Source: Nonlabens ponticola
Lineage (GTDB): Bacteria > Bacteroidota > Bacteroidia > Flavobacteriales > Flavobacteriaceae
Direction: 5' to 3'
Assembly: GCF_003966335.1 (NCBI RefSeq)
Contig: NZ_CP034549.1
Coordinates: 1,650,001 to 1,682,000 of the forward strand
Length of the DNA: 32,000 bases
Of the stretch, positions 3,546-32,000 are shown piece after piece. A program made the translations under genes and the position numbers. The notes beneath the pieces are model-generated. The model saw only the letters and a program-made list of their open reading frames with translations, did not search any database and was not told the origin of the DNA. Position 1 is the stretch's first letter, and every line of letters starts with the position of its first letter.

Positions 3546-3553
3546 TATATTTG
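3546..3553 (+). promoter_or_regulatory. Bacteroidota-type -7 promoter box for the SRP RNA
   Basis: TATATTTG matches the TAnnTTTG consensus and ends 4 nt upstream of the predicted RNA 5' end. Confidence 0.5.
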
Positions 3554-3557
3554 CACT

Positions 3558-3654
3558 GGGCAAGTCCTACACAACCAGCTCCTGCTGAACTCCTCCAGGG
3601 CGGGAACGCAGCAAAGGTAAGCGGTCGTAGCGGTGTGATGTAGGTAGCTTGCCT
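3558..3654 (+). ncRNA. ffs: Signal recognition particle RNA (small 4.5S-type SRP RNA)
   Basis: The terminal helix pairs GGCAAG with CTTGCC and CCTACA with TGTAGG. A conserved domain IV-like core is present: CCAGGGCG-GGAA-CGCAGCAAAGG, with a GGAA tetraloop and AGG/AGCA loops as in E. coli 4.5S (CAGGUCCGGAAGGAAGCAGC). A T7 run follows at 3654-3660. Confidence 0.8.
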
Positions 3655-3702
3655 TTTTTTGTGCGCTATACTCAAATTTAACTATCTGATATCTAGTTGT
3701 TT

Positions 3703-7344: not shown

Positions 7345-7848
7345 ATGAGCACCAATAACCTAAGTAATAAAGAAGCACAACAAAAGTTCAAGAAAATCGT
7401 GGAGAGCGTCGATTTTGCCATGATGTTGACACACCTAGATCAGACACCATTGCATGCGATACCCATGAGTACCAAACGAGTTGACGACAATGGTACGGTT
7501 TATTTTTTGAGTAATCGTGATAGTGAGCACAACAACAATATCGAGAACGATTCCCGCTGCCAGCTTATCTATTCAGAAAAGCACAGTATGGAATTTTTAA
7601 GTGTTTATGGTAAAGCATACATTAGTAATGATCGTGCGTTGATTCACAGTTTATATGGTTCAAGCGATGATAACTGGTTTGAAGGAAAGGATGATCCAGA
7701 GATTACAGTAATTACTTTTCACCCAGAAACTGGACATTACTGGGATTCAAAATCTAATGCACTGGTCAGTCTGTTTAAAATGGGTTATGGAGCCATCACA
7801 GGTGAGAAAATGGATGTAGGTGAGAGTGGCAGCTTGAGCAACCTGTAA
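7345..7848 (+). CDS. Pyridoxamine 5'-phosphate oxidase-like FMN-binding protein (general stress protein 26-like)
   Basis: 167-aa ORF. The size and sequence pattern (FAMMLT..IPMST..DDNGTVYFLSNRDSEHN..FLSVYGKAYIS..YWD) fit the split-barrel PNPOx-like family. Confidence 0.7.
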   Translation: MSTNNLSNKEAQQKFKKIVESVDFAMMLTHLDQTPLHAIPMSTKRVDDNGTVYFLSNRDSEHNNNIENDSRCQLIYSEKHSMEFLSVYGKAYISNDRALIHSLYGSSDDNWFEGKDDPEITVITFHPETGHYWDSKSNALVSLFKMGYGAITGEKMDVGESGSLSNL

Positions 7849-7859
7849 AGATTGAGATT

Positions 7860-8198
7860 ATGGCAGATTATAATAAAGAAGAAGTTTGGGACGAGTTTAA
7901 AGAAAAGCAAAACATGACTCATAATGAGTTGGAAAAATGGCTAGAAACTGAGGAGTCCAAAAATGCTGGCCGAGAAATGGACAACGGTGAGACAGTAGGT
8001 CACGCCAGCGGCCGTAGCATTTTGAAGATCAAGGAAAAGAACAAGAGCGATTTGACAGAAGCCAATTGGGATAAGATAAATGAAACCGTAGGTTATTACC
8101 ATCAAAATCTACACGAGTCCCAAAAACCGTCTAGCGATGTTGAAAACAGCGCATGGTACTATGCCCTCAAAAATTGGGGTCACGATGCTTTAAAATAA
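7860..8198 (+). CDS. Small acidic conserved protein (I recall DUF3140-like; not verified)
   Basis: 112-aa ORF starting 12 nt after the upstream gene and followed by a strong terminator. The family name is from memory only. Confidence 0.65.
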   Translation: MADYNKEEVWDEFKEKQNMTHNELEKWLETEESKNAGREMDNGETVGHASGRSILKIKEKNKSDLTEANWDKINETVGYYHQNLHESQKPSSDVENSAWYYALKNWGHDALK

Positions 8199-16612: not shown

Positions 16613-18550
16613 GTGATCATTTCAATTAAAGCGATAAGTAAAAACTTACCTACTATTCTTGTTTCTTGCAGCTTGCTACTGTTGGTCTCATGGCAGTCTT
16701 CAATTGATCCTGTAGTCAACCGCAATGATTTTAATAGAGTCATAAATGAAAGAAGAGAGATACAGCGTCAATTTAAAGATAGTGCGGTATATCTATTGCC
16801 ATCAACCTATTTAGAGAGCTTTAAAAATGCCAATAGTTGGGCGCAAGCGGCAGGCACTGAAAGAGAAAAACAACAGGCCTATTTCAATTTACTGTTTTAT
16901 TATTACAACCATCAGGATAGCGATAAAGTCATTGAAATCGCTAATCAATTACTTAGTGAACCGTCGTTCATGGAGGTACCTGAATCTGTCAGCACGCTAG
17001 AAGCCCTCAATTATTCTTACAATCGTATTGGGTTTTACAATAAGCAACTAGAAGTACTTCCGTTATTTATAGAACAGAATAAAAAATTTGGCTATCAGGT
17101 ATTGAGTCGTGATTTTAAGGATTACCATGATCGTGCGATGATTTACTATAAACTCAAACAATATGCTAAAGCTAGAGAGAACTTTGAGCTACAGGCCGCA
17201 GCGTTTCAAGAAAATGGTAAAACCTTTAGATACGCTAGTATGCTCAACAACATTGCTCTTACTTATGAAGGACAAGGAGATTATGATAAAGCGCTTGAGA
17301 CCTACTATCAAGCACTAGAAGCTCTTTCCAGCAGTGGTGCAGATGATTACTTTACTACTGAGTATCAACAGCATTTTACCAATGTGGTTCAATCAAATAT
17401 TGCCAGTATTAGATTGCGGCAAGGTGACATTGAGCAAGCGGGAAAGACTTTCTTGCGTGAGATAAGCTCCAGCAAACAAGTAGGTGAGCCCAGGATCACC
17501 ACACAGGCTTATATCAATATGGGTGAATGGTATTTGCTTAATAGTCAAGCGCGGCTTGCCAGTACTTATATTGATAGCGCTATTGCTTTGGAAAAGGAAT
17601 TCAAGAATCCTGTGGCTAGAGCAAAAGCATTTGCGATGAAAGCCAAAGTGTTACACACAATAAGTGATGCAAAAGACGCCTATAAATATGATCTATTTGC
17701 CCAAGGAATAACCGATTCATTGTCCAGGATAAGCGCTCAGCTGCTTTTAGAAGAAGCGGCACTCAAGTATGACTTTGTCAAAGCTCGTAAAGAAGTCGAT
17801 GAAGCTCGTGCCTTACTCAAAGAAAAAAACAAGCTAGAATGGCTACAGTGGATTATTGTAGGGATTTCAATAATACTGGTAGTCACATTTATTTTTCTGT
17901 ATTTAAAGAGTCGCAAAGCGCGTCGTCTGTCAGAAGCTCAAAGCGAGCTCATGAGTAAAGCTGCTCACGAGAAGGAATTAATGCTGTACGAGATTCACCA
18001 CAGGATTAAGAACAACTTGCAAACGGTTTCTGGAATTCTAGATTTAAAGACAAGTAATGTCGAGGATGCGCATTTTCGCAAGGTGATTGATGAATCCCAA
18101 CAACTTATTCAAACTATGAATCTAGTGCACGACCAGCTATATCAATATGGCGAGGACACTGTCGTAGATATGCAAACTCATTTTGAAAAAATATGTAAAG
18201 GAATAATCGATCAATTTGACGCACAAGTTTCTTTGCATGTAAGTGCCAGAGACGCTGTGGTACACTCTGCAGATGCAACACCATTAGGTTTGATATTATG
18301 TGAGTTAGTAACAAACAGTCTCAAACATGGATTAAAAAATGAAAAGAAAGGGATCATAACCGTACTTCTCAAAAAAGAACACGAGAATTGGTACTTCAAG
18401 TATAAAGATAATGGTAGCGGACTCGAGGCAGTTGAAAGCAATGAAGATGGCAAAGTAGGATTACAATTAATCACTTTGCTGGTTGATGAGTTGGGTGGCA
18501 CATGGGAATCAAGTAACAACAACGGTTTTATTTTTCAGATGAATTTTTAA
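16613..18550 (+). CDS. Sensor histidine kinase with an N-terminal TPR-repeat region, one TM helix, a HisKA_2-type phosphoacceptor and an HATPase domain
   Basis: TPR-like repeats are present (..YYKLKQYAKA.., NNIALTYEGQGDYDKALETYYQAL). The TM helix is WIIVGISIILVVTFIFLYL, the H-box is EIHHRIKNNLQ, and the ATPase motifs are LVTNSLKHG and DNGSG. The start codon is GTG. Confidence 0.85.
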   Translation: MIISIKAISKNLPTILVSCSLLLLVSWQSSIDPVVNRNDFNRVINERREIQRQFKDSAVYLLPSTYLESFKNANSWAQAAGTEREKQQAYFNLLFYYYNHQDSDKVIEIANQLLSEPSFMEVPESVSTLEALNYSYNRIGFYNKQLEVLPLFIEQNKKFGYQVLSRDFKDYHDRAMIYYKLKQYAKARENFELQAAAFQENGKTFRYASMLNNIALTYEGQGDYDKALETYYQALEALSSSGADDYFTTEYQQHFTNVVQSNIASIRLRQGDIEQAGKTFLREISSSKQVGEPRITTQAYINMGEWYLLNSQARLASTYIDSAIALEKEFKNPVARAKAFAMKAKVLHTISDAKDAYKYDLFAQGITDSLSRISAQLLLEEAALKYDFVKARKEVDEARALLKEKNKLEWLQWIIVGISIILVVTFIFLYLKSRKARRLSEAQSELMSKAAHEKELMLYEIHHRIKNNLQTVSGILDLKTSNVEDAHFRKVIDESQQLIQTMNLVHDQLYQYGEDTVVDMQTHFEKICKGIIDQFDAQVSLHVSARDAVVHSADATPLGLILCELVTNSLKHGLKNEKKGIITVLLKKEHENWYFKYKDNGSGLEAVESNEDGKVGLQLITLLVDELGGTWESSNNNGFIFQMNF

Positions 18551-24180: not shown

Positions 24181-24822
24181 TTAAGCTGCCGTACCAGAGC
24201 CTAAATAGATGCTGTTTGATACTTGACTACCATCTTCTGATACAAATGCCATAAATAGCTCCACATTGTCTCCAGAATAGGTGTTTGGTAAAGTGATCGT
24301 TTGAGAACCGACGGTTCTATTTGCACCTGTCAAGGTGTACATAGATTCTTTCTTTGATGGATTGTAAACCAATACCATAGCCTTATCGGTAATACTAGCA
24401 TTTCCTTCTGCTGAATTATCTCCCCAACTAAAAGTAGCTTCTCCAACAGTTGTTATATCCACAGCACCGTTTAAAACACCTGATAATGAACCACGACTGA
24501 TTAATGCGTTAGCATAATCAATCATAAAGTTAGGTGCTGTTCCTGTAATTGCATTATTTAGGATGTACGACATTGCTGCATTAAACTCTGTACGCTTGTT
24601 TGCAAAACTTTTATACCCAACTTTAATAAAAGCTTTATTGGCTTGTAAAAACGATAGAGTAGTAGTAAATTTAGTTCGTTGATTTACTTGTCCTTCTGTT
24701 CTTGGATTTGCAACGCTTGAAGGTTTGATTCTTATATAATCAATTCCTTTCCAGTTTCCACCGACTACGTTACCTACTTTTCCTGATAGTCCTCCTAAGA
24801 TTCCTTGAGATATTTTTCCCAT
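24181..24822 (-). CDS. Conserved Bacteroidota hypothetical protein (I recall DUF6266-like), probably beta-rich
   Basis: 213-aa ORF. The N-terminus (GKISQGILGGLSGKVGNVVGGNWKGIDYIRIKP..NPRTEGQ) resembles a family seen in Bacteroidota accessory regions. The name is unverified. Confidence 0.7.
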   Translation of the reverse strand: MGKISQGILGGLSGKVGNVVGGNWKGIDYIRIKPSSVANPRTEGQVNQRTKFTTTLSFLQANKAFIKVGYKSFANKRTEFNAAMSYILNNAITGTAPNFMIDYANALISRGSLSGVLNGAVDITTVGEATFSWGDNSAEGNASITDKAMVLVYNPSKKESMYTLTGANRTVGSQTITLPNTYSGDNVELFMAFVSEDGSQVSNSIYLGSGTAA

Positions 24823-25235: not shown

Positions 25236-25835
25236 ATGAGCTATAAAATATCCATAAAACAAATTATACTGTCTTTGTTGTCTGTTAAAGAGCAACTATA
25301 TAAGAATTTCAAAAATGATAATAGATATAATATGCTACTTGAATACCTTATGTCTAAAGACTTTTACTATGATGATGAATTACCAGTACCATCTGTAAAG
25401 CTTATCAGTGAGTCCACTGAAATAAATACTTACCAAGTAAGGAAAAGGATTATTGAACTGAATGAATTAATCTATAATGATGAAAATGATACCTTTTTAG
25501 AGTTTCCTGAAACAGAAATAGAATTTTCTGCAAGGAATTATGCAGGTTCTATGTTTTTAAAAATGAAGTCTATTAAAGAGGTTCCGCAAGTAGGTGATGA
25601 TATTACGTTACCTCTATTGAGAGGTAAACTAAATACTGATATGTTTTTTGTTGAATCAAAGCATCATTTTTTTGAAGGAAATAAACAAATTATACATTGC
25701 TATCTACAGTCTGGTATGTATAATGAATATTGGCACTTGAGAAAATCTGAAGCTATTTTTAAAGATGAAATTCCGTTTAAAAAAAGGATTAAAATGGATG
25801 ATTATGATATGAAGAAGGAATTAAGTTATTATTAA
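25236..25835 (+). CDS. Hypothetical protein, no recognisable family
   Basis: 199-aa ORF with an ATG start. Its composition is AT-rich, consistent with the island. Confidence 0.55.
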   Translation: MSYKISIKQIILSLLSVKEQLYKNFKNDNRYNMLLEYLMSKDFYYDDELPVPSVKLISESTEINTYQVRKRIIELNELIYNDENDTFLEFPETEIEFSARNYAGSMFLKMKSIKEVPQVGDDITLPLLRGKLNTDMFFVESKHHFFEGNKQIIHCYLQSGMYNEYWHLRKSEAIFKDEIPFKKRIKMDDYDMKKELSYY

Positions 25836-26556
25836 AGCAGGTAATCGCGCAGCTATAGCGCAGTAAGGAATGAAGCGCAGCGAAATGGATTGCTGTGATA
25901 TAAAGCGAGCCGCCAGCGAGTTGAGCAAGGGTGGTATGGCAAATAGCGTGTAGCGATAGCGAAACGCTGCCATAGCTACGTGGTACACGCAGGGCTGGCG
26001 GTGTTTTTGATTCGGCAGTGGTTTGTTGAGATTATAAGGCTTAATTCAGTATTTAGATGATGTTTAAGTTTGCAAATATCAAAAACAGTGACAGCCCGAT
26101 TAGCCCGAAGCGAGCAGCAGGCGAGCCAAATTATTAAACAGCGGTTTACCCTTAAAAAAAAATACTTGCGTAGCAAATCCTTATTGGATATTAAGGGTAA
26201 AAAGAGCTGTGAGTGAGGAAGGCGTGTAATGTGTGTAATAAAACAAATAAATAGCGCCAACGAGGACGTTTCGCCGCAGTGGTGCTATTTATGGTAAGCA
26301 CAAAAGCGACCGCAGGAAGCTATTGTGATTATGTTTTATGGAACAAAATGGAAAAACTGACGAACACCTTATTACCTGCTACAATGTGCGCGCAAAGGCA
26401 AAAGGTGCTGGCTGTAATGCTGTAGCGTCTTATGATAATAAGGTGCGGAAGCGTTATAGCGAGTACCGCGCGGAACGGTAGGCTCTTGCGAGTGAATGAG
26501 TGTAGCTTGCGGAACGAATGAGCGAGTAAGTGCCATTAGTGTGGGGTTTTTTAGAC
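25836..26556. other. ORF-free, GC-enriched, hairpin-rich stretch (candidate structured ncRNA or decayed repeat array)
   Basis: There is no credible ORF. It contains recurrent GAATGAG(C/T)G(N)AG and AGCGnAGCGA motifs and several stems: 25910-17 with 25994-26001, 26146-54 with 26192-200, and ATAAATAGC with GCTATTTAT near 26246-26294. Confidence 0.3.
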
Positions 26557-27033
26557 CTAAGTGTTTTTTAATTCGGATTTCCAAAATTTGTGTTCTCCAT
26601 CTAAAAACACAACGTAAAAAACATTTTTTACTATATGACCTATCACACATTGTTTTCCTGTTATATGTAATCTCGCCCAATTTGCGTCTTCTGGTATTTG
26701 CTCAGGTGGGTAGTACTCAGTTTTCTCATCTGGTGGAAAATCACCGTAGATCGTAAATTTTTGACCGTCAGTTTGATTAAGTAAAGTATCATTACAATAA
26801 CCTGAAAGAACTTCAATAGAATGAGCTAACATAGCATTAGCTTCCCATTCATACAAATTATGCCCTTGTTCTTTGTCTAAATGTCTTAACGATAAGAGCA
26901 TAAAAGAATCAGAATCTAAATCCTTATTAGATTTTTTCTTTTCTAATGTTTGCTTAATAATACTTTTTCGAAGATGTGGTTTTAATTTACCCGCCATAAA
27001 CTTGAGACTTGTAATAATCTCTAATACATTCAT
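26557..27033 (-). CDS. Uncharacterised partner of the Panacea antitoxin (candidate toxin)
   Basis: ORF of 158 aa, or 146 aa from the ATG at 26997. That ATG overlaps the upstream gene's stop (ATGGCGGGTAA). The C-terminal pattern WARLHITGKQCVIGHIVKNVFYVVFLDGEHKFW is loosely RelE/ParE-like. Confidence 0.6.
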   Translation of the reverse strand: MNVLEIITSLKFMAGKLKPHLRKSIIKQTLEKKKSNKDLDSDSFMLLSLRHLDKEQGHNLYEWEANAMLAHSIEVLSGYCNDTLLNQTDGQKFTIYGDFPPDEKTEYYPPEQIPEDANWARLHITGKQCVIGHIVKNVFYVVFLDGEHKFWKSELKNT

Positions 27034-27490
27034 TAGGAATTACAACTTCACATCTTTGACCAGCATCATAGCCTCTACGTGCGTATATCCAAGGCTCTTC
27101 GGAATGAGTCATATTCTCTAATTGAAGCCCAGAAAGTTCTTTCAATTCATCTATGACATCGTTAACAACCTCCATCTGAGAAGCAGTCAAAGTATCATTA
27201 ACTATAATAGCAGGGTCAAGTTCGCCTTCATCTAAAACAAACTTAAGTTCTGTATGCAATATTGATAAATCTCTAGCAGAATTATAAATTTTACGAGATA
27301 CTGGACCGTGCACCCAAGCTTGAAACTCATCTTCGATGATGGGCACGTCAAAATAGGCCAAATGATAAGCTTGAATGTAAAATAGTATTTTCTGAATTTT
27401 CAAATGAGACATAGCTCCTCCTCGTACTAAAATATAGTCGACAAGATTATTTGAATCTATTAGAGCCAGTTCTTTACGTTCAATACTCAT
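26987..27490 (-). CDS. Panacea-domain (DUF4065, SocA-like) antitoxin
   Basis: It contains HLKIQKILFYIQAYHLAYFDVPIIEDEFQAWVHGPVSRKIY, which matches the DUF4065 pattern (kLqKLlYy.q..hL......lf...f.AW..GPV...vY). Confidence 0.8.
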   Translation of the reverse strand: MSIERKELALIDSNNLVDYILVRGGAMSHLKIQKILFYIQAYHLAYFDVPIIEDEFQAWVHGPVSRKIYNSARDLSILHTELKFVLDEGELDPAIIVNDTLTASQMEVVNDVIDELKELSGLQLENMTHSEEPWIYARRGYDAGQRCEVVIPNECIRDYYKSQVYGG

Positions 27491-27673: not shown

Positions 27674-27910
27674 TTAGGACTTAGATGTTATTTTATCTAT
27701 CAAATACCCTAATAATATTATACCACCAATCGTAATTGCTGTTTTAAATACACCTTCTGCATTTTTATCTGCAACATATTTATCATATTGACTTTTAGTA
27801 ATAGAATTACTTTTAAACAATAAACTCATATACTCATCCTTCTCAGATGTAGTTGCATTATTGGTATTAACTCTTTGGTTTAAATACCTAAGTCTTTCGT
27901 AATCTATCAT
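27674..27910 (-). CDS. Small tail-anchored membrane protein
   Basis: 78-aa ORF with a single C-terminal hydrophobic helix (AITIGGIILLGYLI). Its start overlaps the upstream stop by 4 nt (ATGA). Confidence 0.55.
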   Translation of the reverse strand: MIDYERLRYLNQRVNTNNATTSEKDEYMSLLFKSNSITKSQYDKYVADKNAEGVFKTAITIGGIILLGYLIDKITSKS

Positions 27911-28185
27911 TTCTTAGGTTTTTTAATTTTCGCAACAGCTTCTATTAAATCAGGAAGATGATTAAGTACTTGTGCTTGAAATGTATCTATGATTTGTTGT
28001 TGATTCTCATCACGTCCTCTAAGCTTTTCTAATTCTATTTCCTGATTATGTAACTTATCCTTTAGCTCGTTATATTTGTTATTGGTGTACTCTTTTAGAT
28101 TGTGCTTAGTAGAGAAAAATGTAACTACCGCACTAAATGCCATAAGAGCTATACCTATTAATAATTGTACTGCTATGTTATCCAT
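27907..28185 (-). CDS. Small N-terminally anchored membrane protein with a coiled-coil tail
   Basis: 92-aa ORF with an N-terminal helix (IAVQLLIGIALMAFSAVVTFF) followed by a charged heptad-like region. It starts 51 nt downstream of the ATPase-Toprim gene. Confidence 0.55.
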   Translation of the reverse strand: MDNIAVQLLIGIALMAFSAVVTFFSTKHNLKEYTNNKYNELKDKLHNQEIELEKLRGRDENQQQIIDTFQAQVLNHLPDLIEAVAKIKKPKK

Positions 28186-28236: not shown

Positions 28237-30405
28237 TTAAAGAGCCTTTTTAATCAACTCAATTAAGTTTGCGGTGTTATCATTTAATTTTAAAACTATT
28301 TCATAATCTCCATTACCCCAGTGACCTTTACCAGCAACATCCTTAGTTATTCCTTTTGGATCATCTAAAGTACCTTTCTTTTTATTTATCCAGATTTTTA
28401 ATTGTTTTGTCTGGATTGTTATATCTACAACATTACTTTTCTTTTTAAAGGCTATATAATCCTTTTTAGGAACAACTTTTAAATTCTCATCAAGAGCAAG
28501 TATCTTATCTCTTAGATCTTTGTAATATTGAACTATTACACCTGTTCTATTTTTAAAATGGTCTTCTTCAGTATAAGAACCTTTTTGAGTATTGAGAGCA
28601 ACAAGTTTTAATGGTTTCTTCTTTTCAGTTTTATCATTTTTATTAGAATCTTTCTTTTTATTTTGACTCATCATACTTTTTGCTTTCATCGCTGCTATTG
28701 AACTTATAGAATCCAATCGTATTTCTTCTAAATAGTCGAACAGTGGAATGAAATAATCAAAATCACTTTCTTCAAATTTTGTGCTATTTAATGAAAGTAT
28801 ATTCTTTGCTTTTAATTTAATATCCTCGCTTATATCGTCTATAGATTTGTTATTGAAATAGCCTTTTGATTGCTCTAATGACTCGATGTAAGCTTCTTCG
28901 AATTTGTCACAGCTATACATATTCTCAATTGTGCAATCTCCTTTAAATCCCTTAGGTTTAGGCAATGCTAAGGCGTAATAAGAATAATGCGAATAATCAT
29001 TATCTTTTAATATTCTGTATTGTTTTCCTTTAATCGGTAGAAAGCCTCCTTTAGTTAATGAGCTATTACCGGCTGTGTCATTGTCATAAATGCCTATGTA
29101 TAATTTGTTATTATTTAAACTGGCGTCTCTAATTCCCTTAAGCATTGGTGCGATATTCGTTTCACCTTTTAAAGAGAAAATATCAAAATCTAAAGATGGG
29201 TATTTGCTACTAAGAGCTTTGAAAGCTGTTTTTATATGCTTCAAGTCGTGTTTGCCTTCGACAAGTAAAATAATTTTTTTATCACTTGATAAAAATGAGC
29301 TTTGCTGATGTTTATTCCAAAAATCGCCTGTAAGATCATCAATGATTTCTTGTTTTTCTTTAGGTATTATTTTACCGTCATTTACCATAAATAGTGAATC
29401 ATCATTTATGGATTTAGTGACTGTTGGTGAATGAGTAGTTACGACAATTTGTCTATTTGATTTATATGGATTAAAGGTTTTTATTATTTGTTCCTTGTTA
29501 TTCAAATGAATATGAGCGTCAGGCTCATCCAAAATAAATAAACTATCTTCTTGACTTGCAAACTCAAATGCCGACTTAATTAGAAGTAATTTTTTCTCTC
29601 CTTCACTTAAGTCCTCTATACTAAGATGTTCATTAAAACGAATTACTATGTCAGAAATGATTTTTGTTGATTTAGGGGTGAATGCCACATAAAGTAATTT
29701 GTAAACGTCATCCGGTATATAGTCATTATCATTAATTAGTTTTTTAAATTCTTTCAACGTGTACTCACTTTTTTTATCAATTATTTTGATAAAATCGAGT
29801 ACTGAGCCATCATTATATTCTGAATAATTATCCTTTTTAAATTGGAATGATATTTTATCTACTTGAGTTATACCTAAAACATCTTTAACGAACACTTTGT
29901 TATCATCTAAGTCAGAAATAATTAAAGCCAATAAAGAAATATGCCAATAAAACTTATTTAGATAAAGCATTTGCGGCATCAAAGAAACACTTTGTAACAG
30001 TCCTTGTTTGCTTGACTTATTAATATTTGAAACATAATCTCCGTAAAATGGAAAGTAACATTTGCGCCATAGTCTATCTTCCTCACCACTATATAATGCA
30101 ATTACTTTTTTTGGCAAATACTGGCTTATATTTATTGTGCTAACATCATTAACAAAAGCAGTAGTTTTAGATTTCTTCTTTTCTATTTTGATGGTTTGCT
30201 GAGCTAAGTTGGTATATTCTATAAAATAGTCAAACGAGACCGTTTCTGTTTCACGATATAGACTTCTAAAAATATAACTAAGAGCTTCTAACAAATTACT
30301 TTTTCCACTCCCGTTATTACCAATTAAGGCAATGATATCTGAGCTGTGTACTAATTTGATTTCTAAATTTTTATAGCCATCAATTGCTAATTTTGTTATC
30401 TTCAT
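28237..30405 (-). CDS. ABC-type ATPase + Toprim nuclease fusion (OLD/PARIS AriAB-like) with a C-terminal DUF5655-like domain
   Basis: ATPase motifs: Walker A GNNGSGKSNLLEAL, signature-like LSEGEKKLL, Walker B LFILDEPDAHIH, H-loop VVTTHSP. Toprim motifs: ILLVEGKHDL and GIYDNDTAGN (compare DnaG EGxxD / DGDxAG). The C-terminal ~110 aa (YIAFKKK..LDDPKGITKDVAGKGHWGNGDYEI..LIKKA) resemble DUF5655. The start overlaps the hsdS stop (ATGA). Confidence 0.85.
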   Translation of the reverse strand: MKITKLAIDGYKNLEIKLVHSSDIIALIGNNGSGKSNLLEALSYIFRSLYRETETVSFDYFIEYTNLAQQTIKIEKKKSKTTAFVNDVSTINISQYLPKKVIALYSGEEDRLWRKCYFPFYGDYVSNINKSSKQGLLQSVSLMPQMLYLNKFYWHISLLALIISDLDDNKVFVKDVLGITQVDKISFQFKKDNYSEYNDGSVLDFIKIIDKKSEYTLKEFKKLINDNDYIPDDVYKLLYVAFTPKSTKIISDIVIRFNEHLSIEDLSEGEKKLLLIKSAFEFASQEDSLFILDEPDAHIHLNNKEQIIKTFNPYKSNRQIVVTTHSPTVTKSINDDSLFMVNDGKIIPKEKQEIIDDLTGDFWNKHQQSSFLSSDKKIILLVEGKHDLKHIKTAFKALSSKYPSLDFDIFSLKGETNIAPMLKGIRDASLNNNKLYIGIYDNDTAGNSSLTKGGFLPIKGKQYRILKDNDYSHYSYYALALPKPKGFKGDCTIENMYSCDKFEEAYIESLEQSKGYFNNKSIDDISEDIKLKAKNILSLNSTKFEESDFDYFIPLFDYLEEIRLDSISSIAAMKAKSMMSQNKKKDSNKNDKTEKKKPLKLVALNTQKGSYTEEDHFKNRTGVIVQYYKDLRDKILALDENLKVVPKKDYIAFKKKSNVVDITIQTKQLKIWINKKKGTLDDPKGITKDVAGKGHWGNGDYEIVLKLNDNTANLIELIKKAL

Positions 30406-31763
30406 TTCTGGCTAAATATTTCTTGTTCAAATTTCACTAATGCATCTTTCCTATTGTTTAATGCATTCACTTTTAAAATTTCAATACGTTGGTATATGCT
30501 TTGTAGCTTGTTAGCTATTGTATTTTGCAGTTGGATGGATGGTAGAGGAAAAATGATCTTTTTTAGATTGGTAATCCCTAACTCAGTTTGCTTAGTTGAT
30601 TGTGCGGATTTAATGCTTTCTACTTGATATTGACCATACTTGCTATTAAATAAATAAGTAAAGAATAAGGGATTTACTTTTGTTTTATCTAATCTCAATA
30701 ATAACAAATGACTATCGTACAAAAGATCTTCATTTTCAAAAGTAATTATTGATGCACGACCGATAGTTCCATCACCGGTAGAGTTAATTAATACATCTCC
30801 TTCTCTTGTAAAGAACTTTTTGTCAATTTTGTTATACCATTTGTCATTTACTGTTTTTACGTAGCTAAGATCTAATGCATTCCATCTATTACATTTTTGA
30901 TTGAGAATAGTGCTATTACCTTCACTATCATATTTTGGACTTTTACCTCTAAATGCATCGTTGAATAATTCTGGTGAAATTGATAAAGAAGTTGTTTTAT
31001 AAATATTAGACTGAAATCTTGAATTATCAATATTATATCCCCATTCGGCTATCTCTGTGTAAGACACAAAGGACAAACCTACCTTTGAAACTTTATTATC
31101 AATTTTATCTAATCCTAAATCTTTAAATAGTATTTTTTCTATTTCATTTTCTAATTGCGTTATTTCATTTTCCTGATTTTCAGCAATATCAAAATGATAA
31201 TTATAATTGTCAATTATTCTCTTTTGCTCATTTATAGATGGTAAGGGTATTTTTATTTCATTGAGTAGTTGATCAGGTTTAATATATTTTCTATTTGTAG
31301 AGCCTGTTACAAATCCGTCCATATATTGATTTACCATTGGACTTTTGAATAGAAGTTGAACATAATCTATTAATACTTTAGATTTGTCTATGGTTGCAAA
31401 AGTCATATTAGAAGATGCTATACCCTTTTCAAAACGATCATCGATTATTCCAAAAGCACCATTTTTAGTGTCCACTTTACACCAAAATAAATGATCTTTA
31501 GGGGCAATTTGATAGGTTCGCATTTTTAAAGTATTGCCTTTTACAGTTCTATTGATAAATGTCCCCTTGCCATATGATCGAACACCTAAAATTCTGTATT
31601 CTTTGTGGTCAATAATTTTGGTTTTTTCAATAATTGGTTTACTCAAAAACTCACCAAATAAAACTAATGGCAATTTTTCTTTGAAAATATTTTGTAGTCT
31701 GAAATGATTTTTCACATCCCAAATTGCAAGTTCTGTATATTCTATAATTGTCAATTCTGCCAT
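30402..31763 (-). CDS. hsdS: Type I restriction-modification specificity subunit
   Basis: It shows a two-TRD architecture with the two conserved helical spacers (IPLPSINEQKRIIDNY...LENEIEKIL and IFPLPSIQLQNTIANKL...). It starts 2 nt after the upstream stop. Confidence 0.9.
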   Translation of the reverse strand: MAELTIIEYTELAIWDVKNHFRLQNIFKEKLPLVLFGEFLSKPIIEKTKIIDHKEYRILGVRSYGKGTFINRTVKGNTLKMRTYQIAPKDHLFWCKVDTKNGAFGIIDDRFEKGIASSNMTFATIDKSKVLIDYVQLLFKSPMVNQYMDGFVTGSTNRKYIKPDQLLNEIKIPLPSINEQKRIIDNYNYHFDIAENQENEITQLENEIEKILFKDLGLDKIDNKVSKVGLSFVSYTEIAEWGYNIDNSRFQSNIYKTTSLSISPELFNDAFRGKSPKYDSEGNSTILNQKCNRWNALDLSYVKTVNDKWYNKIDKKFFTREGDVLINSTGDGTIGRASIITFENEDLLYDSHLLLLRLDKTKVNPLFFTYLFNSKYGQYQVESIKSAQSTKQTELGITNLKKIIFPLPSIQLQNTIANKLQSIYQRIEILKVNALNNRKDALVKFEQEIFSQK

Positions 31764-31765
31764 AA

Positions 31766-32000
31766 TTATTTATAAAACAATTCTGGTTCTCTTGCTTCAC
31801 TATTTTCAGATATAGGAATACGATACATTTTATTGTCTTCTACAATTTCATATTCCACCTTATTAATTATATTCCTCCAGAGCTTGTTTGAAATGCGATA
31901 CTCTGTAAAGTCTTTGGCCAGTGGTACTAACTCATTTTCAATTTTTGCACCTGTTGTGCTTATTCCTGCTTTTTCTACTTCAGCTATTGGAATCTCATAA
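31766..32000 (-). CDS. hsdM: 3' end of the probable type I R-M methyltransferase subunit (partial)
   Basis: An open frame runs off the right edge and ends ..YEIPIAEVEKAGISTTGAKIENELVPLAKDF...PELFYK*. The position immediately 5' of hsdS and the C-terminal pattern fit HsdM, but only 78 codons are visible. Confidence 0.55.
   Translation of the reverse strand, partial: YEIPIAEVEKAGISTTGAKIENELVPLAKDFTEYRISNKLWRNIINKVEYEIVEDNKMYRIPISENSEAREPELFYK

Follow-up and report, generated by a model that had tools for sequence, protein, structure and literature searches.

The window analysed here, a stretch of 32,000 nucleotides from Nonlabens ponticola (contig NZ_CP034549.1, positions 1,650,001 to 1,682,000), carries at its right-hand end, on the minus strand, an hsdM-like methylase frame, a gene for an hsdS-type specificity subunit, and a gene for a protein of 722 amino acids (aa) in which an ABC ATPase, a Toprim nuclease and a DUF5655 domain are joined. 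The catalytic motifs of this protein are intact, its gene is strictly linked to methylase and hsdS genes in related loci, and both the effectors at this position and their C-terminal tails are swapped between loci. Few defence effectors are as common in bacteria as the ATPase–nuclease modules of the OLD family and of Septu; to our knowledge, the way in which they sense infection is known in few cases: PARIS with Ocr, the retrons, and recBC-defective cells for P2 Old. The gene set described here belongs to a family, hundreds of members strong, that would couple OLD or Septu effectors to a restriction-modification (RM) module which reads sequence and methylation and has no HsdR.

The hsdM-like frame enters at the window edge; its last 77 codons run from 31999 to 31769 and are followed by a TAA stop codon (31768–31766). 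Two bases (TT) separate this stop codon from the start of hsdS (30402–31763, minus strand), which encodes a subunit of 453 aa with two target-recognition domains. The TGA of hsdS and the ATG of the 722-aa open reading frame (ORF; 30405 to 28237, minus strand) lie within the same four nucleotides, ATGA (30402–30405), and the junction of the hsdS stop and the ORF start, with its 4-nt overlap (30405–30402), reads CAGAAATGAAGATA. Such an overlap suggests that hsdS and the 722-aa gene are translationally coupled. The ORF list and a direct reading of the sequence agree on this order, as it had been given in a preliminary description of the window. A deposited Nonlabens ponticola protein, named "AAA family ATPase", has the same sequence as the 722-aa protein (100% identity), and the 120 relatives among the matches listed in a sequence search with the 722-aa protein all have E ≤ 1e-173, which rules out a chance ORF. 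Annotation pipelines give each part a name of its own ("N-6 DNA methylase", "restriction endonuclease subunit S", and "AAA family ATPase" or "ATP-binding protein") and call no system.

The ATPase–Toprim protein and its tail

The protein begins with an ABC ATPase of the OLD/PtuA/AriA type (aa 1–365; 29311–30405, with this and the following regions on the minus strand), which has a helical insert at about aa 106–245 and is recognised by Pfam, PADLOC and Foldseek. This is followed by a Toprim nuclease with a helical domain (aa 366–583; 28657–29310), assigned by conserved residues, PADLOC and the structural model; by a lysine-rich disordered linker (aa 584–607; 28585–28656), in which the predicted local distance difference test score (pLDDT) is <50 for aa 585–607; and by a DUF5655 domain (aa 608–722; 28240–28584, with the stop codon at 28237–28239), found by Pfam and PADLOC. 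The six motif strings quoted in the preliminary description are all present: GSGKS (aa 32–36), LSEGE (aa 266–270), ILDEPD (aa 291–296) and TTHSP (aa 323–327), and then VEGKHD (aa 382–387) and YDNDTAG (aa 440–446).

The ATPase part scores above the Pfam cut-offs with AAA_21 (2.4e-22), SMC_N (3.6e-16) and AAA_15 (2.4e-11), and matches the PADLOC models of PtuA (4.7e-43), mad3 (2e-26) and AriA (8e-22); the PADLOC GajA, Old and AriAB models also match, extending over the ATPase and into the beginning of the Toprim. Across 77 aligned sequences, K35 and S36 (Walker A), S267-E268-G269 (signature), D293-E294 (Walker B) and H325 are invariant. The Toprim set E383, D387, D441, E494 and K534 is equally invariant in this alignment, and two more positions are conservatively kept: D443 (73 D, 4 E) and T492 (75 T, 2 S). 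The two-metal set of the Burkholderia pseudomallei OLD protein comprises E400/E404/D455/D457/T506/E508/K562, i.e., the pattern E / +4 acid / DxD / TxE / K (PMC6755086), and the Toprim residues of the present family correspond to this catalytic set one-for-one.

The ATPase–Toprim–DUF5655 architecture proposed earlier holds, with the Toprim being its weakest part on Pfam: the 722-aa protein reaches 17.2 bits with OLD-like_TOPRIM (PF20469), below the gathering score of 23.2. PF20469 is carried by several relatives (precomputed), mostly as weak or faint matches, and aa 366–582 taken alone match the PADLOC retron RT-Toprim_I-C models (8.7e-9 to 3.5e-5). An AlphaFold2 model of the whole protein has a mean pLDDT of 87, and the Toprim region is modelled in a β-α-β-α-β topology (pLDDT 85–97). 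In Foldseek, the best solved structures are the OLD protein of Thermus scotoductus (Ts OLD, 6p74; 2.9e-11, 528 columns), GajA (1e-10, up to 696 columns) and retron Eco8 (642 columns), with additional matches to PtuA and AriA. The TM-scores are low (0.27–0.38), as expected if domain orientations differ. Searches of PDB sequences, both with the single protein and with a profile, matched the ATPase part only. Considered together, the invariant catalytic set, the PADLOC matches to the Toprim alone, PF20469 in relatives and the Foldseek results make the Toprim assignment secure, as judged from residues and a predicted fold. By motifs and modelled fold, the 722-aa protein is a member of the OLD family, an OLD-type ATPase–Toprim protein which has intact catalytic motifs and is apparently active.

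The DUF5655 domain passes the Pfam cut-off (PF18899, aa 614–721; 2e-11, 44.3 bits against a cut-off of 24), and the tail matches the PADLOC candidate PDC-S18 (2.2e-36). Modelled alone, the domain has a pLDDT of 91 and a YdhG/YjbR-like α/β fold; the Foldseek matches of this model to YdhG (DUF1801; 2oc6, E 0.02, TM 0.56), YjbR (2fki) and COG5646 (2i8d) are weak, all with E ≥ 0.02. The motif GHWGNGDYE is conserved within the domain (alignment A2). Neither Foldseek nor Pfam yielded a catalytic or clear functional assignment for DUF5655, and none of the free-standing DUF5655 proteins carries a second Pfam domain.

In close relatives, the first ~565 residues are conserved and the C-terminus consists of DUF5655, DUF4357, DUF4268 or no tail at all. 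An exhaustive search gave 213 clusters (50% identity) at E ≤ 1e-30, the majority of 555–600 aa and tailless. The tails are the C-terminal halves of PADLOC candidates: PDC-S18 (DUF5655), PDC-S14 (GIY-YIG + DUF4357) and PDC-S11 (DUF4268). On these comparisons, the tail can be exchanged as a module. Among type IV enzymes, GmrSD and McrB have DUF4268 and DUF4357 as accessory domains (PMC4619093, PMC11090510). In Clostridium paraputrificum (L107, 4051–11792), hsdS and hsdR of a canonical type I operon are separated by the genes for a free-standing DUF5655 protein of 217 aa and an unknown protein of 271 aa; the presence of a free-standing copy inside such an operon indicates that DUF5655 is itself restriction-associated, and a binding or adaptor role of the domain fits such an association. 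The tails thus tie three domains of unknown function (DUF5655, DUF4357 and DUF4268) to one defined context.

Gene linkage and the methylase–hsdS pair

The 77-aa hsdM fragment matches the PADLOC model MTase_I PDLC03018 at positions 678–743 of 749 (9.2e-24), and it is 77.6% identical to aa 723–798 of the methylase from a related locus in Mariniflexile (L013). Used as a query, the fragment matched short fragments only and no full methylase. PDLC03018, with its 749 positions, covers the nuclease–methylase fusions of the relatives end to end (~1296 bits). Because the fragment matches the C-terminus of this model and has such high identity to a relative, the "hsdM" of the window is probably likewise a fusion of a PD-(D/E)xK nuclease and an N6-adenine methylase, of ~750–800 aa, with its start beyond the window edge. 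In nearly all loci found through the ATPase, the methylase is 729–805 aa in length. The methylases of the relatives have HSDR_N_2 at the N-terminus (2.1e-21) plus N6_Mtase, and both their EE...D...ECK PD-(D/E)xK motif and their NPPF methylase motif are invariant; RM.BsaXI is a sequence match to them (4e-21). The hsdS product matches Pfam Methylase_S in two stretches (7.6e-14) and PADLOC Specificity_I at aa 4–451 (1.7e-82). It is 25–40% identical to the S subunits of related loci, a low identity which is expected, as specificity subunits vary.

At two loci (L104, 1576–6032; L105, 716–5088), a methylase of 443–471 aa without the PD-(D/E)xK N-terminus is followed by hsdS and then by a 569-aa ATPase–Toprim gene. 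The short methylase shares 52% identity with the long methylase from aa 166 onwards, and the Toprim is the sole recognisable nuclease in this three-gene set, on contigs of 5–6 kb. In L104, an ORF of 161 aa precedes the short methylase; it was considered as a detached nuclease domain and rejected (hhalign probability 0.05%).

Through relatives of the 722-aa protein, 18 distinct loci (31–67% identity) were collected from genomes and assemblies of many Bacteroidota genera, of Psychrobacter and of a Flammeovirga megaplasmid. The ATPase–Toprim gene directly follows methylase–hsdS in 18/18 of these, which bears out the linkage to hsdS noted earlier, and among the loci examined no family member was found away from methylase–hsdS. 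A small helix-turn-helix (HTH) gene opens the gene set in many loci. Judged by gene order, the ATPase–Toprim gene is the terminal member of a fixed HTH–methylase–S–ATPase set. In two loci, that of Psychrobacter (beside polA) and that of the Flammeovirga megaplasmid, the system lies among non-defence genes.

None of the 18 loci has hsdR as part of the gene set (flanks of 7–10 kb where the contig allowed), and the sole nearby helicase in related loci is an unrelated PLD-helicase gene (L102/L103). In the window, domain scans of the ORFs between 16.6 and 32 kb found no SF2-helicase HsdR, as had been noted from the sequence for the region downstream of hsdS. As this absence is systematic across the relatives, the missing hsdR is a property of the family and not an edge effect. 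Two elements of the preliminary description do not survive this comparison. The locus had been taken for a type I operon with no hsdR downstream; an hsdR that was lost or lies out of view is rejected, as the absence is systematic, and the "hsdM" of the relatives is a type IIB-like nuclease–methylase fusion. The 722-aa gene had also been placed in a "prrC slot", which is an analogy only, because hsdR is missing from the whole family: the gene ends the set and is not inserted between hsdS and hsdR.

Several of the related loci have further genes around the set. In the closest relatives (L013, 12169–14674; L015/L016, 12150–15661; L022, 12743–15206), a conserved 107-aa protein with no family match follows the ATPase–Toprim gene, and in L013 and L015–L017 it is itself followed by a gene for a Piwi-domain protein (prokaryotic Argonaute) of ~705 aa; L022 has an unannotated 693-aa ORF at that position. 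In L008, hsdS and the ATPase gene are separated by a gene for a homologue of the 107-aa protein. This locus, from Flavobacterium cheongpyeongense, also has an IS200-type transposase between methylase and hsdS (7609–8049), an insertion by which the system may be disrupted there.

The linkage was also approached from the opposite side, through the best 80 of at least 501 methylase matches in a metagenome scan (61–82% methylase identity). Of these loci, 56 extend for at least 1.8 kb after the hsdS stop and could be counted. An ABC-ATPase gene of the same superfamily lies within 1.5 kb after hsdS in 53 of the 56, and in 43 loci at most ~60 nt separate the end of hsdS from the start of the ATPase gene; the spacings that were measured range from –11 to +17 nt, mostly –4 to +3. 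The effectors were classed by alignment extent and ORF length, with spot checks only. About 32 loci have ATPase–Toprim genes, some of them tail-fused (700–745 aa), others of 560–640 aa and followed by a separate gene: PDC-S14 (GIY-YIG + DUF4357), a Schlafen/AlbA_2 protein or an unknown 291-aa protein. A PtuA-like ATPase of ~480–520 aa with an overlapping gene of ~200–230 aa is present in about 21 loci, and in the three pairs checked the identity as Septu PtuA and PtuB held in all three. PtuA and PtuB genes right after hsdS, or beside the ATPase–Toprim gene, were seen in L003 (6565–9388), L021 (10146–12300), L023, L025, L090 and others. OLD-type and PtuAB effectors are interleaved along methylase similarity, and the effector diverges much faster than the methylase (e.g., 28% versus 62% identity in L083). 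By gene content, one type of nuclease–methylase and S pair is coupled to two families of ABC-ATPase nucleases.

Known systems and the role of the gene set

The 722-aa protein has in common with the OLD family (P2 Old/Ts OLD, GajA and retron Eco8) the ABC ATPase with its helical insert, the Toprim with its helical domain, and the catalytic set. The partner is different: class 1 OLD proteins have none, class 2 have a UvrD-like helicase and class 3 have a reverse transcriptase with a non-coding RNA, whereas here it is methylase–HsdS; and only the present protein has an additional, exchangeable C-terminal domain. Class 1 genes stand alone, and upstream methylase–hsdS genes were found here at every one of the 18 loci. 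No UvrD/PcrA-like helicase (GajB) was found in the window ORFs between 16.6 and 32 kb or as the adjoining gene in related loci; no reverse transcriptase was found in the gene tables of the related loci, and no retron RNA in an Rfam scan of the window. The published OLD classes are stand-alone, Gabija, retron and PARIS, and none is RM-linked (PMC10568477).

MADS likewise has a regulator, a methylase, an ABC ATPase and an HsdS-like subunit in one operon. The PADLOC MADS models match the methylase of the relatives (mad2, 2.9e-51) and the S subunit (mad5, 1.2e-22), in addition to the mad3 match of the ATPase. However, the gene order differs, and the present ATPase is fused to a Toprim nuclease. 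The MADS-defining genes mad6–8, which the published detection model requires, were unseen at the loci examined and had no PADLOC match in the downstream ORFs of the window, although mad6–8 models were not searched against every locus; with NCBIfam, MAD3 scores 32.8 against a cut-off of 420 and MAD5 scores 51.3 against 400. In PrrC and PARIS, as here, an ABC ATPase is coupled to a nuclease and tied to restriction-modification: EcoprrI holds PrrC inactive, and Ocr triggers PARIS (PMC12839542; bioRxiv 10.1101/2024.01.29.577857). PrrC differs in having an anticodon-nuclease domain, not a Toprim, and in lying inside a full hsdMSR operon, whereas the present set lacks hsdR. PARIS differs in usually comprising two genes and in not being bound to a particular RM system; the PADLOC AriAB match (7.9e-19) aligns to aa 259–446 only, and Pfam DUF4435 is unmatched.

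The type IIB enzymes BcgI and BsaXI resemble the upstream pair in consisting of a PD-(D/E)xK–N6-adenine methylase and a separate two-domain S subunit, a likeness that concerns the relatives, as the window contains the last 77 aa only. The ABC-ATPase nuclease behind hsdS in 53 of 56 loci sets the present family apart, and PADLOC files its methylase as type I; we know of no type IIB enzyme with an ATPase partner. Retrons of types I-A and I-B, and Septu, use the same two families of effectors, and the PADLOC model ATPase-Toprim_I-B covers one relative nearly to its full length. In the retrons, however, it is a reverse transcriptase with msDNA, not a methylase–S pair, that acts as the upstream "sensor". 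HEC-04 is a validated single-gene ABC ATPase–Toprim fusion embedded in an Hma defence system (bioRxiv 10.1101/2024.01.29.577857, Payne et al. 2024); it is not among the top PADLOC matches of the 722-aa protein, but it demonstrates that the general theme has been described before. The candidates PDC-S18, PDC-S14 and PDC-S11 are proteins of ~300 aa without the ATPase–Toprim part.

Membership of Gabija, retrons, PrrC and MADS was rejected, with a defining partner or domain missing each time (for MADS, at the loci examined), and membership of PARIS is improbable for a like reason. Membership of Septu was rejected as well, since the PtuA model (PDLC00293) covers only aa 1–197 of the protein and there is no PtuB-like gene in the window. 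No PADLOC model spans the whole 722 aa, and neither the domain combination nor the gene set was found described in PADLOC or in the searchable literature, in keeping with the earlier impression that the combination is new; a prior description in Krishnan et al. is possible. We read the family as a dedicated RM-coupled class of OLD proteins, with exchangeable effectors and tails, that is distinct from the published OLD classes. Its nearest counterparts are MADS, PrrC, PARIS, the effectors of type I-A and I-B retrons, and HEC-04.

What such a coupling might achieve can be outlined as follows. We favour a role of the 722-aa protein as the nuclease effector of a dedicated RM-coupled set without hsdR, i.e., as a guard or effector that is kept in check by the methylase complex, and consider the chances of this being correct to be evenly balanced. 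The physical association, the trigger and the substrate are all inferred. The methylase and S subunits would assemble into a type IIB-like (RM)2S complex, by which a bipartite site is recognised and the DNA of the host is methylated. The ATPase–Toprim protein, co-produced with HsdS by way of the ATGA overlap, would be kept inactive by this complex, and would be released on trouble: either when unmethylated foreign DNA is engaged, or when the complex is blocked by a phage anti-restriction protein. Once released, it would cut DNA, or possibly tRNA, with the DUF5655 tail serving as an exchangeable, non-catalytic binding or adaptor module. The part played by the RM module may be seen as analogous to that of reverse transcriptase–msDNA in type I-A and I-B retrons, or to that of EcoprrI for PrrC. 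Precedents that support such a leash are EcoprrI–PrrC, Ocr–PARIS, the I-A and I-B retrons, and mad5 of MADS. MADS has a bipartite type I-like site, and genetic evidence points to joint action of its methylase, ATPase and S subunit: cells tolerate the deletion of mad5 only when mad2 or mad3 is deleted with it (bioRxiv 10.1101/2023.03.30.534895).

Several points count against a guard held by the methylase complex. A physical complex with the ATPase–Toprim protein is a conjecture. Homology alone places the N-terminus of the window's methylase and the HTH gene past position 32000. The PD-(D/E)xK motif of the methylases is invariant, and the RM pair may thus restrict unaided, with the third gene as a co-inherited neighbour. 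Septu acts alone in published assays, and its presence in the slot could mean a hotspot instead of a partnership. Finally, the 80 most similar methylases (61–82% identity) were sampled, and the 95% linkage may therefore fail for distant ones.

It is distinctly improbable, in our estimation, that the 722-aa protein is an independent neighbour: a self-contained OLD-type abortive-infection or type IV-like nuclease, with a tail that reads a DNA feature, and with no cross-talk to a type IIB-like RM pair. Single-gene ATPase–Toprim defences are known (P2 Old, E. coli YbjD and HEC-04), Septu, additional genes and an IS200 transposase can also occupy the slot, type IV enzymes have DUF4268 and DUF4357 as accessory domains, and the locus of the window is situated in a low-GC island next to a SocA/Panacea pair. 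Yet all 18 relatives, down to 31% identity, keep the upstream partners, with reading frames that mostly overlap or abut; no family member was found away from methylase–hsdS; and two of the loci have no other defence genes around them.

The strictness of the linkage could also mean that the ATPase–Toprim protein is a substitute for HsdR, i.e., an integral subunit that carries out restriction in a novel, ATP-dependent type of RM system. HsdR would then have been split, its PD-(D/E)xK nuclease moved to the methylase and its SF2 motor replaced by the ABC ATPase with its Toprim, with all three proteins needed for the restriction of unmethylated DNA. This fits with hsdR being missing at every locus examined, with a linkage that is near-obligate in both directions, with the HsdR-type nuclease family to which the methylase N-terminus belongs (HSDR_N_2), with L104 and L105, where the methylase has no nuclease domain, and with MADS, in which the mad3 ATPase is required for defence and deletion of mad3 rescues deletion of mad5. 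On the other hand, BsaXI, a type IIB enzyme with a similar make-up of nuclease–methylase plus S, cuts without an ATPase; the third gene is readily replaced by PtuAB and has diverged much more rapidly than the methylase, which is unusual for a core catalytic subunit; the characterised OLD, PARIS, P2 Old and retron effectors are triggered toxic effectors; and on the contigs of L104 and L105, which are 5–6 kb long, an hsdR or a separate nuclease gene could sit off the contig. We regard this substitution as rather unlikely. A broader version is possible, if doubtful: an unrecognised ATP-dependent RM type in which HsdR is replaced by an exchangeable ABC-ATPase cartridge (ATPase–Toprim or PtuAB), with the HsdR nuclease domain residing on the methylase. 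If this were so, the methylase–S complex would direct Septu and OLD effectors as reverse transcriptase–msDNA does in retrons. The gene set offers a tractable system for two questions: whether an RM complex can be the sensor and leash of an abortive nuclease, and whether an ABC ATPase–nuclease can replace the type I motor.

Genomic setting of the locus

The G+C content is 29% at 28–32 kb, as against ~39% elsewhere in the window, which suggests an acquired island. Downstream of the 722-aa gene are two small ORFs of 92 and 78 aa (27674–28185, minus strand; ORF list), which overlap each other by 4 nt. The 92-aa product has an N-terminal hydrophobic helix and the 78-aa product a C-terminal one, and neither has a Pfam, PADLOC or PHROG match. 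These membrane-type ORFs were considered as part of the system and rejected, with a counterpart in no related locus; they are probably outside it.

A SocA/Panacea-domain antitoxin gene (26987–27490, minus strand; 167 aa, Pfam 1.9e-23) lies in the same low-GC island. It is overlapped by a 158-aa ORF (26557–27033, minus strand), the sole match of which is PHROG 8366 (1.5e-5); the two are probably a toxin–antitoxin pair. A DUF6266 gene (24181–24822, minus strand; Pfam 3.1e-97) is found a few kb downstream of the system, and the Polaribacter-type loci L015/L016 have a DUF6266 gene at 17730–18371, beside DUF6943 and an HTH_17 gene. The presence of DUF6266 downstream both in the window and in L015/L016 hints at a common mobile-element backbone. 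An integrase is located upstream of the system in L013 and L021.

In the region from 25820 to 26760 of the window, only short, implausible ORFs are present on both strands, and the GC skew is positive; the region has no tRNA and no Rfam match at the gathering threshold. The only Rfam match in the window is a Bacteroidales-type small signal recognition particle RNA at 3551–3658 on the plus strand (RF04183, 101 bits).

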